From: Asaia bogorensis
Lineage (GTDB): Bacteria > Cyanobacteriota > Cyanobacteriia > PCC-6307 > Cyanobiaceae
DNA: 64,000 nucleotides
Direction: 5' to 3'
Assembly: GCA_943370455.1 (NCBI GenBank)
Contig: CALRQW020000001.1
Coordinates: forward strand, 377,506 to 441,505
Shown here: positions 30,426-54,858 of the stretch, in pieces
How positions within the stretch are numbered: position 1 is the stretch's first letter
Layout: each line of letters starts with the position of its first letter
Notes under the pieces: model-generated
What the model was told of the DNA's origin: nothing
The model's database searches: none
What the model saw: the letters and a program-made list of their open reading frames with translations, nothing else
Position numbers and translations under genes: made by a program

Positions 30426-31508
30426 ATGCAGCGATGGCGTCACGCGCTCGGGCGCTGCATCAGCTGGAGTTGGTGCACCACCGCAGGCCTGGCCCTGCTC
30501 ACGCTGCTGATCAGCCTGCTGATCGATGAGCGCTTCAACACAGCACTTGAGCTGAGAAACCTTCCCTGGAGCGTGCTGCCGGTGATCGCCGGTGTGGCAC
30601 TGCTCAACACCAAGCAGGAAGGCTTGCTGGTGGTGCTGTTTCTGGCTCTGGAGATCTCAAGCAACCTCGCCCATGGGACGGGCCACGCAGATGGGCGGGT
30701 TGAAGCGCTGATCTGGGCGCGCCGCAGCCTGATCCTTGTGTGCTGCATCTGGGCCGCCCATGTGCGCTCACAGCTGGAAGACCAACGGCTGAAACTGCAA
30801 GCCAGCCAGGCTGCATTGGAAGAAAAACTGGCCCAGAGCCTGAAGGCCTCCGCCCTGGCCCATGAGCTGCGTCAGCCCCTGAGCCAGCTGCTGCTTCAAA
30901 CCCGGCTACTCCAGCACCGCTTCGAAGAATCAGCCATCAGCAACCCAGCGCTGCAGCAAACGATGGCGGAACTACTGAGCTGCGGTGCTCAGATCAACGA
31001 CCTGATCGAGGCCATCGGCTCACTCCTCAGGGAGTCGGCCACGCCGATGCAACCCGTCGACCTCACCGCAGTGCTCCGTGCCTGCTTGCAGCGGCTGAAA
31101 CCGCTGCTGCAGGCCTCCAGCGTGGAATTGCAACTGCAGCTGCTGCATCCACCAGTGCTGGTGAGCGGAGTGCCCGGGCAACTGGAGATTGCCTGCTGCA
31201 ATCTGCTCAGCAATGCCTGCGAGGCGTTAGACGGGCAACCGCAACCGCGCCGCCTGGCCTGCAGCCTTCAAGCTGAGGCCGGCATGGTTGAGCTGGTGGT
31301 GGCCGACAGCGGCCCGGGCCTAGCCAACACCAACGTGCGCGAACTGTTGATGCGCAGCACCAAACCCCAAGGAATGGGGGTGGGCTTACTCACCGTGCAA
31401 TCGATTGCCTGCCGCCACGGCGGTGCACTGCACCTGGGCCGCTCCAACCCATTGGGGGGAGCGGAAGTGCGTCTCAAACTGCCGCTGGCGAACCCGCGTC
31501 CCACCTGA
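30426..31508 (+). CDS. Membrane sensor histidine kinase
   Basis: N-terminal TM helices, H-box AHELRQPL, N-box NLLSNA, G1 DSGPG, G2 GMGVGL. Confidence 0.9.
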   Translation: MQRWRHALGRCISWSWCTTAGLALLTLLISLLIDERFNTALELRNLPWSVLPVIAGVALLNTKQEGLLVVLFLALEISSNLAHGTGHADGRVEALIWARRSLILVCCIWAAHVRSQLEDQRLKLQASQAALEEKLAQSLKASALAHELRQPLSQLLLQTRLLQHRFEESAISNPALQQTMAELLSCGAQINDLIEAIGSLLRESATPMQPVDLTAVLRACLQRLKPLLQASSVELQLQLLHPPVLVSGVPGQLEIACCNLLSNACEALDGQPQPRRLACSLQAEAGMVELVVADSGPGLANTNVRELLMRSTKPQGMGVGLLTVQSIACRHGGALHLGRSNPLGGAEVRLKLPLANPRPT

Positions 31509-32115
31509 GGGTGCGGTGCAGCGTGGCCAGCCGCACCAGCTCCGAGCCACTCACGCCGAGCTTGGCGGCCACGCTTTTGCGATAGGTCTCCACCGTGGCC
31601 ACGCTGAGCTCCAACCGGGCAGCGATTTCCTTATTGAGCAGCCCGCAGCCCAGTTCACGCACCAGCCGCTGCTCCCGCGGACTGAGCCGATCGATCGCTG
31701 CCAGCTGCTGCTCACAACCTTGCATGGCCGTTGCGATCCCACCGCAGAGACTCTGCTTCCAGGGCATCAACACGGTCAGCAGCTGATCCCAAGCCTGGGC
31801 CTTATCCACCACGCCAATCGTGAAGGGCTTCAGATCAGCAGGGGGCTCGAACTGAGAGGCCAAGGCCGTAATGAACAACAGCTCAGCCTCCGGCCTGCGC
31901 TGCAGGAGCGGATCAGCCGCACCGCGATAACACTCACCACCCAACTCCACATCGAGCACCAACAGACGGGGTGGAGAAACGCGGATCAGGGCAACAACCT
32001 CCTGCACCGAAGCACAAACCCCGGTGACGTTCAGGCCGGCCACTTCAGACAACACACCAGCGATGGCCTGGCCCACCATGCGGTGATCGTCGAGAACAAC
32101 AACATCCAAAACCAC
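31474..32115 (-). CDS. NarL/LuxR-family response regulator
   Basis: VVLDDHRMV, LLVLDVEL, LSPREQRLVR...G..NKEIA..LELSVATVETYR. Confidence 0.92.
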   Translation of the reverse strand: MVLDVVVLDDHRMVGQAIAGVLSEVAGLNVTGVCASVQEVVALIRVSPPRLLVLDVELGGECYRGAADPLLQRRPEAELLFITALASQFEPPADLKPFTIGVVDKAQAWDQLLTVLMPWKQSLCGGIATAMQGCEQQLAAIDRLSPREQRLVRELGCGLLNKEIAARLELSVATVETYRKSVAAKLGVSGSELVRLATLHRTLRWDAGSPAAV

Positions 32116-54182: not shown

Positions 54183-54858
54183 TCGCAGCCACGCCGGTCG
54201 AGCTCTGGCCAAGCAGCTCAGCGGCTGGAGCCACGATCCCAACGCGCTGGTGGTGGGGCTTCCCCGCGGCGGCATCGTGGTGGCCGCCGAGGTGGCCCGG
54301 CAGCTTCAACTGCCGCTGGCCAGCTGGGCCGTGCGCAAACTCGCCCATCCCCAGGCGCCGGAACTAGCCCTGGGAGCCATCGCTCCAGGTGGCGTGCAGA
54401 TCTGGGATGAAGCCACCGCCAGGGCCTATCGGCTCGATCCCGCGCTGCGCCAATGGATCGTGGCGGAGCAGCAGCGCGAGCTCGAACGCCGGCAGCGCCT
54501 CTATGGCGATCCACCGCCAGCAGCGCTGCGCCATCGGCCGCTGCTGGTGATCGACGACGGCGTGGCCACCGGCCTCACGGTGCGGGCCGCGCTGCAATCG
54601 CTGCGCCTCAGCGCGCCCAGCCAACTGGTGCTGGCGGTGCCCGTGATCGATCGGCGCGTTGCTGATGCCTTGCGCCCGCAGCTGGATCAGCTGGTCGCCC
54701 TGGCGGAGGTGGATGACCTCTGGGCCGTGGGGGCCTGGTATCAGCGCTTCGAGCCGGTGAGCGACAGCGAGGTGCTGCGACTCATAGCTGCGTGTAATGA
54801 GGATCGAGCCAGCAGCGGGGCAACGCTTCACCGGAAGGAAAGATCAGATCACTCTTGA
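54157..54858 (+). CDS. Phosphoribosyltransferase-domain protein (like the N-terminal half of Rv0571c)
   Basis: DRSHAGR.LA, VGLPRGG, VRKL..P..PELALGAI, VIDDGVATG, LAVPV, AVGAWY..F..VSD.EV. Confidence 0.92.
   Translation: MVRTALWRDRSHAGRALAKQLSGWSHDPNALVVGLPRGGIVVAAEVARQLQLPLASWAVRKLAHPQAPELALGAIAPGGVQIWDEATARAYRLDPALRQWIVAEQQRELERRQRLYGDPPPAALRHRPLLVIDDGVATGLTVRAALQSLRLSAPSQLVLAVPVIDRRVADALRPQLDQLVALAEVDDLWAVGAWYQRFEPVSDSEVLRLIAACNEDRASSGATLHRKERSDHS

Follow-up and report, generated by a model that had tools for sequence, protein, structure and literature searches.

A picocyanobacterial gene cluster that shares part of its content, but not its regulation, with the mycobacterial DosR regulon

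The stretch of DNA considered here, called the window throughout, comprises 64 kb of contig CALRQW020000001.1. It belongs to a picocyanobacterium of fresh water, whose proteins are nearest to entries annotated as Vulcanococcus, Synechococcaceae or Cyanobacteriota, and the DNA is present in lake-water metagenomes. Between 30.4 and 55.5 kb, from a histidine kinase through TspO, the window contains a stress cluster. Three of its products, a phosphoribosyltransferase (PRTase), an alpha/beta hydrolase and a CapA protein (CapA#1), show subfamily-level homology to mycobacterial proteins, and the cluster is in part a DosR-like growth-arrest toolkit. It is not a DosR regulon. With a probability of about 0.55, we regard it as a conserved picocyanobacterial stress and growth-arrest cluster that contains a cross-phylum module of PRTase, hydrolase, CapA and P2-type ATPase and is under lineage-specific control. 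An initial annotation had proposed a coherent hypoxia/dormancy island built from a DosR-regulon-like kit. To speak of a "hypoxia/dormancy island with DosR-like control", however, exceeds the evidence.

The gene map of the window was obtained by a gene call guided by the G+C content at third codon positions, together with Pfam and NCBIfam scans. The orthologues of Mycobacterium haemophilum DSM 44634 (locus L091; related loci are numbered in this way) served as proxy for the M. tuberculosis proteins in the comparisons. Every gene named in the initial annotation is present at the position and start given there, as judged from Pfam and the translations, and the LLLGGDLMLGRGIDQ motif lies at 37051. 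Missing from that annotation were a second P-type ATPase (ATPase #2), a second PGA_cap gene (CapA#2), a PgsB/PgsC pair and a PEBP gene.

The PRTase represents a distinct subfamily, of which TT1426 of Thermus is the sole good solved relative. It has the TT1426-type domain with the loop that binds phosphoribosyl pyrophosphate (PRPP), and its motifs PRGG and VIDDGVATG agree with invariant columns of alignment A1, which was built from PRTase-hydrolase fusion proteins. The same holds for the motifs GSSTG, SRGGRPD and SHLFDEPG of the hydrolase, a 2o2g-type domain with a Ser-Asp-His triad. Searching 1.8 billion representative proteins with the PRTase yielded 12,542 relatives, and some twelve of the best 150 are fusions of 430-460 residues. 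The non-PRTase half of these fusions is 44-53% identical to the hydrolase of the window, with E-values down to 7e-53, and their PRTase half is 39-46% identical to the PRTase. Since the two halves match the two proteins, the two genes, 12 kb apart in the window, correspond to the halves of one widespread fusion. In M. tuberculosis it is known as Rv0571c.

Comparison with the fusion of M. haemophilum leads to the same result. The hydrolase is 51% identical to the hydrolase half over 196 residues (E = 4e-45) and the PRTase 38% identical to the PRTase half over 217 residues (E = 6e-36), and in both cases the reciprocal best hit falls on the respective gene of the window. These hits, together with the gene linkage in 80 loci described below, bear out the proposal that Rv0571c is split here. 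Split it certainly is: PRTase and hydrolase are separate genes, not a single polypeptide, in the window as well as in L003 and L095, and split forms are found elsewhere too, e.g., in L016 and L043. That the two proteins act together may be inferred, because they are fused in other organisms.

The third counterpart is CapA#1. It has a full PGA_cap domain and is 42.7% identical to the M. haemophilum CapA over 349 residues (271 bits, E = 8e-91), again as reciprocal best hit. CapA#2 reaches only 29% over 205 residues with the same protein (51 bits), and the two CapA proteins of the window are only 30% identical to each other (41 bits). CapA#1 is thus closer to the Rv0574c orthologue than to other PGA_cap proteins, and its assignment as an Rv0574c-like CapA stands, supported by the reciprocal best hit and by the linkage in the 80 loci. 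For hydrolase, PRTase and CapA#1 alike, the reciprocal comparison by way of M. haemophilum reveals a relationship closer than shared family membership explains. As for the function of the mycobacterial protein, Rv0574c has been related to the poly-alpha-L-glutamine or poly-Glx content of the cell wall (PMC5309233, citing Garg et al. 2015).

Outside the cyanobacteria, CapA#1 has its closest relatives in the Comamonadaceae, with 52-55% identity. Of five Comamonadaceae loci examined, three have a convergent gene for a CBS protein and one for a ribosome hibernation factor behind CapA, and two have archease and RtcB directly upstream of it. In Rhodoferax, CapA comes directly after hoxFUYH, and in Ramlibacter it is found among universal stress proteins (USPs) and PAS sensor proteins. 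The arrangement archease-RtcB-CapA followed by the convergent CBS and hibernation-factor genes can be seen in L010 (6049-12187), L097 (6133-10214) and L099 (8001-10289), all from Comamonadaceae, and RtcB-archease-CapA recurs in M. haemophilum (L091, 6815-9892). The Rv0574c-type CapA is linked to genes of RNA repair and ribosome hibernation across phyla.

The surroundings of the fusion point in the same direction. When the fusion alignment was scanned against 185,579 species genomes, more than 590 relatives were obtained, and the best 80 loci were analysed for genes within 10 kb on either side. These loci belong mostly to the Actinomycetota (Streptomyces, Pseudonocardia, Mycobacterium, Acidimicrobiia), and the fusion is also found in Nitrospirota, Acidobacteria, Chloroflexia, Anaeromyxobacter, Gammaproteobacteria and one Methanosarcina. 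Twelve of the 80 contain a CapA#1-type gene, which lies directly downstream on the same strand in 8 (42-47% identity, 257-296 bits), these immediate neighbours being those of Streptomyces and Pseudonocardia; a ninth, in L065, is about 2 kb away from the fusion. A small heat-shock protein (sHsp) of the Hsp20 family is encoded in 9 loci and a P2-type ATPase in 7. Further recurrent neighbours are tandem USPs (12 loci), zinc-dependent alcohol dehydrogenase (Zn-ADH; 8), an erythromycin esterase-like protein (7), RtcB (6) and PncB (4); CBS proteins and DUF1876 are likewise among the clustered ones. This is a typical dormancy-type gene set. The M. haemophilum locus corresponds to the Rv0569-Rv0574c block: a class II ribonucleotide reductase (RNR) of 692 residues (NrdZ-like), DUF1918, RtcB, archease and CapA, divergent from the fusion. 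This block, block 2 of the DosR regulon, includes Rv0571c as a putative PRTase (PMC5309233). In the paper on OsdR (PMC5069765), PRTase and CapA are not mentioned.

A P2-type ATPase thus belongs to the recurrent neighbours of the fusion. Of the two in the window, ATPase #2 is the one closer to these neighbours: it is 41-43% identical (515-524 bits) to the ATPases beside the fusion in Acidimicrobiia and only 39% identical (396 bits) to its paralogue in the window, ATPase #1. It is most similar to the alpha subunits of the eukaryotic Na,K- and H,K-ATPases and has the motifs PEGL, SNVAE and DLGTD like those pumps. Its 3' end and the start of the PRTase gene share 26 nt, an overlap that points to translational coupling; a metagenome protein, P0088, reads as an ATPase C-terminus joined to a PRTase. 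In ATPase #1, which the initial annotation had compared with CtpF of the DosR regulon, the M6 aspartate of Ca2+ pumps (NLVNDS in LMCA1) aligns with an asparagine (NLATNG), and M5 reads SSGAAE. Judged by these residues, the ion moved by ATPase #1 may not be Ca2+.

How stable is the cluster? The most instructive relative is L095, a diverged locus with a PRTase that is 76% identical. There the order is histidine kinase, response regulator, ribbon-helix-helix (RHH) protein, small genes, PEBP, SpoIIAA-like protein, Hsp20, GGDEF protein, hydrolase, RHH protein, sigma factor, cfa, PRTase and TspO, and the downstream flank is that of the window, with desaturase, FAD protein and photolyase. The ATPases, CapA and the D1 variant are lacking in L095, and PRTase and hydrolase are only 3.5 kb apart. 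The loci L001-L004 share the backbone and differ in accessories: L001 lacks CapA#1, L002 lacks ATPase #1, and in L003 cfa abuts the ATPase #2-PRTase pair, the block of 45-51 kb being absent and other genes following the PRTase. In all, 17 metagenome contigs carry an identical Hsp20 with varying neighbours. The island is therefore coherent as far as the backbone of 12 genes is concerned, which is syntenic in L095; as a whole it is a mosaic, since strains that are nearly identical differ in both ATPases, CapA#1 and the PgsB/C block. Nevertheless, the clustering of the kit genes exceeds chance, because within 18 kb there is one copy each of the hydrolase, PRTase and CapA#1 subfamilies, because the gene order recurs in the diverged L095 and because the same families are linked in other phyla. 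The features are compiled in Table 1.

Table 1. Features of the cluster and its immediate surroundings, with positions in the window.
Feature	Position	Strand	Assignment and remarks
Membrane histidine kinase (transmembrane N-terminus, HisKA-like, HATPase_c)	30426-31508	+	Pfam; 360 aa in L001/L002; kept in L095
NarL/GerE-type response regulator	31474-32079	-	Pfam
P2A-like P-type ATPase #1, accessory	32498-35101	-	Pfam; NCBIfam best IIA2; PDB best Listeria LMCA1, 442 bits
PEBP, YbhB-YbcL family	36282-36776	-	TIGR00481, 101.6 bits vs cut-off 57.75
CapA#1, PGA_cap protein of Rv0574c-type subfamily, accessory	37030-38199	+	Pfam E = 2.4e-66
Tandem SpoIIAA-like protein (PF11964)	38227-38952	+	Pfam E = 1.5e-36, two stretches
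Conserved 102-aa open reading frame	39014-39322	+	Called in L001-L008
Hsp20, alpha-crystallin sHsp	39404-39838	+	Pfam E = 4.7e-26
GAF-GGDEF diguanylate cyclase	39876-40871	-	Pfam; kept in L001-L004 and L095
AbrB-like transcriptional regulator	40938-41330	-	PF14250, E = 8.8e-23; 130 aa in related loci
Alpha/beta hydrolase, dienelactone type; hydrolase half of Rv0571c-type fusion	41767-42441	+	PDB 2o2g, E = 1.6e-53
RHH_5 (CopG-like) small regulator	42596-42865	+	Pfam
Divergent RpoD-family (group-2-like) sigma factor	42933-43772	-	Pfam; TIGR02997 192 bits, below cut-off 384
Cyclopropane-fatty-acyl-phospholipid synthase (cfa)	43825-45024	-	NF008686, 506 bits vs cut-off 400; Pfam CMAS
Low-GC insertion, strain-specific, outside conserved cluster	45140-51470	.	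GC 0.56-0.58; absent in L003
CapA#2, CarboxypepD_reg-PGA_cap	45140-47197	-	Second PGA_cap gene, strand opposite PgsB/PgsC
PgsB/PgsC pair	47374-49553	+	PgsB equivalog, 323.6 bits vs cut-off 222.7
P2C-like P-type ATPase #2, accessory	51492-54182	+	Pfam; PDB best Na,K/H,K-ATPase alpha subunits, 477 bits
TT1426-type PRTase; PRTase half of Rv0571c-type fusion	54157-54858	+	PDB 1wd5, E = 8.4e-29
TspO/MBR tryptophan-rich sensory protein, downstream edge of syntenic cluster	55072-55518	-	Pfam; after PRTase in L095
D1 (PsbA) variant	55798-56856	+	Mn-cluster ligands retained

The PEBP gene is kept beside the SpoIIAA-like gene and Hsp20 in L001, L002, L005 and L095, and the SpoIIAA-like protein is kept in all related loci. 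The product of the open reading frame (ORF) between the SpoIIAA-like gene and Hsp20 contains several cysteines and has no match in Pfam or NCBIfam. The sHsp had been put forward as a close counterpart of HspX. This did not hold. Its best matches among solved structures are proteobacterial (Xylella) and plant class I sHsps, with 73-85 bits, against 55 bits and 36% identity with an approximate HspX sequence; with the sHsps of the fusion loci, identity is 27-40%. The likeness to HspX is the generic one of the alpha-crystallin domain. The sigma factor is syntenic in L003, L004 and L095. The intergenic region in front of the RHH_5 gene (42442-42595) is strongly conserved in the diverged L095 (7207-7381) and contains a palindrome, TCTCA…TGAGA, which probably serves as an operator for autoregulation. 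The cluster has at least four small RHH_5 genes at scattered positions, among them those at 35702-35902 and 35937-36155 of the minus strand. The ORF of 314 codons at 35664-36608, which overlaps small RHH genes of the other strand and lacks domains, was rejected as spurious, and so were long ORFs on the plus strand across from cfa and CapA#2, which lack domains and overlap real genes.

The cluster is flanked by a fatty-acid desaturase, an FAD protein and a photolyase, and the D1 variant lies downstream of TspO. In this D1 variant, residues around the Q_B pocket are unusual when compared with the canonical AHGYFGRLIFQYASFNNSR, and QEEPT is found in place of QEEET. It had been counted among the members of the hypoxia kit, but shows no preference for PsbA2; its classification as a microaerobic D1' type was rejected for this reason. 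Upstream, at 1.7-19.6 kb, the window encodes phosphoenolpyruvate synthase, hoxF, hoxH, hypA/B/F, pyruvate:ferredoxin oxidoreductase (PFOR) and hypD/E. The G+C content of the window is about 67%, with dips to 0.52-0.58 near 18-28 kb and at about 45-51 kb. The first dip, between hypE and the cluster, comprises an ABC exporter with C39 peptidase and its HlyD partner, i.e., a bacteriocin-type export system, as well as a ZIP metal transporter and an IQCH-like ATP-grasp protein (18000-28000); this segment was probably inserted independently, by horizontal transfer. The second one (45140-51470) is a poly-gamma-glutamate set of PgsB, a double-length PgsC-like protein, a DevB/HlyD-like adaptor and CapA#2. 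Poly-gamma-glutamate genes are unusual in a picocyanobacterium.

The cluster is transcribed. Four lake metatranscriptomes, which carry no labels for oxygen, light or other conditions, contain transcripts at a low level from 30-44 kb and from 51-55 kb, with Hsp20 covered deepest, and no reads over the PgsB/C block at 45-50 kb. The high depth seen at psbA and at 43340-44006, from the 5' end of the sigma factor to the 3' end of cfa (run X28), is probably due to conserved paralogues.

A number of observations weigh against a growth-arrest cluster of this kind. Near-identical strains can dispense with CapA#1 and with either ATPase, and in another picocyanobacterium (L093) the PRTase is found in an unrelated context. 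Kinase and regulator are convergent, their 3' ends overlapping, and hence do not form an operon; in strain L002 the regulator is truncated to 112 residues and the kit persists. Many partners known from elsewhere are absent: tblastn of the window with actinobacterial and M. haemophilum queries revealed no USP, RtcB, archease, PncB, CBS, Zn-ADH, erythromycin esterase, NrdZ, DUF1918, PolX or DUF1876, and the Pfam scans of its ORFs no nitroreductase domain. The likeness to the DosR regulon therefore does not extend to such typical families as USP, RtcB, CBS, NrdZ, PncB, DUF1918 and nitroreductase. Nor did motif discovery in the promoters, suggested by the initial annotation, reveal common control: no motif is common to the upstream regions of 18 genes of the window and 12 of L095, and only that of the RHH gene is clearly conserved. 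As to expression, the text of the study on the dark-anoxia transcriptome of Cyanobium BSA11S reports a modest induction of hox and hyp genes, attributes only 3% of the transcriptome variance to oxygen and makes no mention of the genes of the cluster (PMC13588713).

In the promoter comparison one word, GCGGATTGG, had drawn attention. It occurs five times in the window, against 1.3 times expected, always on the minus strand (43806, 45048, 45233, 49877 and 55580), and three of the sites are upstream of sigma factor, cfa and tspO. It was rejected as a shared motif, since it was chosen post hoc, is not conserved in L095 and lacks shared flanks at its five sites; the word is probably not meaningful.

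Of the alternatives, the one that survives best denies that there is any functional unit. The region would then be a flexible one, filled with stress-related and horizontally acquired genes, in which only PRTase, hydrolase and CapA have a common origin with DosR block 2, the remaining resemblance being due to very common families. Such a view can invoke the varying gene content of strains with identical Hsp20, the two low-GC insertions and the odd context of the PRTase in L093; moreover, sHsps and P-type ATPases are ubiquitous, and the resemblance of Hsp20 to HspX is generic. It does not explain, however, why the order of the 12 backbone genes is kept between lineages with PRTases of only 76% identity, why these families lie together in Actinomycetota, Chthonomonadales and Proteobacteria as well, and why the cluster has at least four regulators of its own. 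The overlap of ATPase #2 and PRTase, too, is what one expects of one operon. We consider this possibility unlikely.

It has further to be considered whether the cluster responds to envelope or ion stress or to the stationary phase in general, be it caused by salinity, pH, temperature or high light, without any specific link to oxygen. Cfa and the adjacent desaturase, TspO, the sHsp, two cation pumps, the group-2-like sigma factor and, in this strain, the poly-gamma-glutamate set would fit, all of them being typical of general stress or of the stationary phase to judge by cfa of E. coli and the group-2 sigma factors of cyanobacteria. The small effect of oxygen in the Cyanobium BSA11S study (PMC13588713) would fit as well. 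Yet hox, hyp and PFOR genes flank the cluster, and the nearest relatives of CapA#1 and of PRTase-hydrolase are found near hoxFUYH, DcuA/B, the hibernation factor, USPs and in DosR block 2, which makes a purely general stress response improbable.

There remains a true DosR-like hypoxia regulon, in which the NarL-type regulator and the kinase sense low oxygen and switch on the kit along with hox, PFOR, D1, cfa and tspO. Three proteins of the kit do have true counterparts in the DosR regulon, genes for hox, hyp and PFOR lie close by, and in L001, L002 and L095 the kinase and the regulator keep their synteny with the kit. The regulator also finds its best match among solved structures in DevR (3c3w). 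The match amounts, however, to only 43 bits, compared with about 34 bits for FixJ, NarL and RcsB. The recognition helix EKTVKNY of DosR aligns with VATVETY, and at the positions of K179, K182 and N183, the base-contacting residues of DosR, the regulator of the window has A, E and T. Its designation as a DosR orthologue can thus not be upheld. The kinase fares no better as a relative of DosS or DosT. The Pfam and NCBIfam scans detected no GAF, PAS or haem sensor domain in it; its dimerisation domain is weakly HisKA-like and not HisKA_3, and its NCBIfam matches, far below the cut-offs, are to a generic core of the ZraS/NifL/FixL type. Finally, the Dev box GGGACnnnnGTCCC, allowing for one mismatch at most, is absent from the 64 kb, although 2.9 sites would be expected by chance. 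With the convergent pair, the truncated regulator of L002, the lack of a common promoter motif and a D1 variant devoid of PsbA2 preference added, this is the least probable of the alternatives.

The conserved growth-arrest cluster under lineage-specific control, which we prefer, may be pictured as follows. Histidine kinase, response regulator, PEBP, SpoIIAA-like protein, Hsp20, GAF-GGDEF protein, hydrolase, RHH protein, sigma factor, Cfa, PRTase and TspO form the fixed backbone, into which two P2-ATPases, CapA#1 and the PgsB/C block are inserted as strain-variable accessories. In the Actinomycetota, the cross-phylum module is part of a dormancy set of the DosR/OsdR type (DosR block 2), among USPs, sHsps, RtcB and CBS proteins. 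The cluster would be switched on when growth stops, most plausibly upon limitation of energy or oxygen in dark or anoxic lake water; this trigger is suggested because the hox, hyp and PFOR genes adjoin and because of the contexts in which the relatives are found. Control would be exerted by the cluster's own sigma factor, its two-component pair, the RHH and AbrB regulators and the enzyme of cyclic di-GMP metabolism, not in the manner of DosR. The sHsp would protect proteins and Cfa stiffen membranes; the P2-ATPases might hold ion gradients at low ATP; CapA#1 might remodel the envelope or a poly-Glx polymer; PRTase and hydrolase could catalyse two steps of one PRPP-dependent reaction.

Within the dormancy regulon of M. 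tuberculosis, Rv0571c still counts as uncharacterised, and for Rv0574c the characterisation is only partial. It is here that the cluster may become useful. The subfamilies travel together: they are fused or adjacent in Actinomycetota, split and still clustered in freshwater picocyanobacteria, and in Comamonadaceae the context is that of RtcB, CBS and hibernation-factor genes. Such joint travel across phyla argues for one shared function, and harmless, culturable organisms are on offer in which it can be tested. The cluster is also a concrete candidate for the persistence of Cyanobium-type organisms in dark or oxygen-poor water, and the regulators that it encodes, namely the sigma factor, the two-component pair, the RHH/AbrB proteins and the GGDEF protein, are amenable to knockout. 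One may go a step further and see in PRTase, hydrolase, Rv0574c-type CapA and P2-ATPase one ancient, horizontally mobile growth-arrest module, which oxygenic picocyanobacteria use under their own sigma factor and two-component system in dark anoxic lake water. This idea is a speculative one, more doubtful than not by a good deal; if it were true, a non-pathogenic phototroph would be a tractable model for what Rv0571c and Rv0574c do. Three aspects appear to be new, as no mention of them was found in the literature: the presence of an Rv0571c/Rv0574c-type module in cyanobacteria, the splitting of the fusion there and the recurrent linkage of PRTase-hydrolase and CapA across phyla.

Among known systems, the nearest for CapA#1 by structure is MslH, a CapA-fold epimerase (8gq9). 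It is the only solved relative, and the match is weak: 32 bits in the PDB, and 43 bits with the NCBIfam model, the cut-off of which is 700. With the CapA/PgsA of PgsBCA systems CapA#1 shares the full PGA_cap domain; it differs in that it does not adjoin PgsB/C. The clusters of Streptomyces, Pseudonocardia and Acidimicrobiia, dormancy neighbourhoods of the OsdR/DevR type, contain the same subfamilies of PRTase, hydrolase and CapA and have P2-ATPases and sHsps within 10 kb. There, however, PRTase and hydrolase are one polypeptide, CapA follows directly downstream, and USPs, Zn-ADH, erythromycin esterase and RtcB are at hand, none of which is found in the window.

Another pertinent system is the lxa locus of Burkholderia cenocepacia, whose "phospholipid-binding" protein we take, from its name only, to be of the PEBP type. 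This locus is a non-actinobacterial island that overlaps with the DosR regulon, so that an overlap of this kind in low-oxygen islands outside the Actinomycetota is already documented (PMC3721108). Like the cluster of the window, it combines an alpha-crystallin sHsp beside the said protein, which is highly induced, with a cation-transporting ATPase and regulators of its own, including a two-component system (PMC3721108). The differences are equally clear. For lxa, induction by low oxygen and a role in anoxic survival have been demonstrated; it is rich in USPs and contains genes for RNR, pfk, the synthesis of polyhydroxyalkanoate and Anr-type regulators; neither a PRTase-hydrolase nor CapA has been reported from it (PMC3721108).

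The regulon that DosR controls in M. tuberculosis itself differs from the cluster in several respects. In the window the fusion is split, a DosR orthologue, a kinase of the DosS/DosT type and a Dev box are absent, the sHsp is not specifically HspX-like, and the host is an oxygenic phototroph. Both have in common the Rv0571c-type PRTase and hydrolase and the Rv0574c-type CapA (38-51% identity with the M. haemophilum orthologues), an sHsp, a P2-type ATPase, the clustering of the genes and a regulator of the NarL family nearby. The likeness is one of gene content, and of a part of it; it does not cover regulation.

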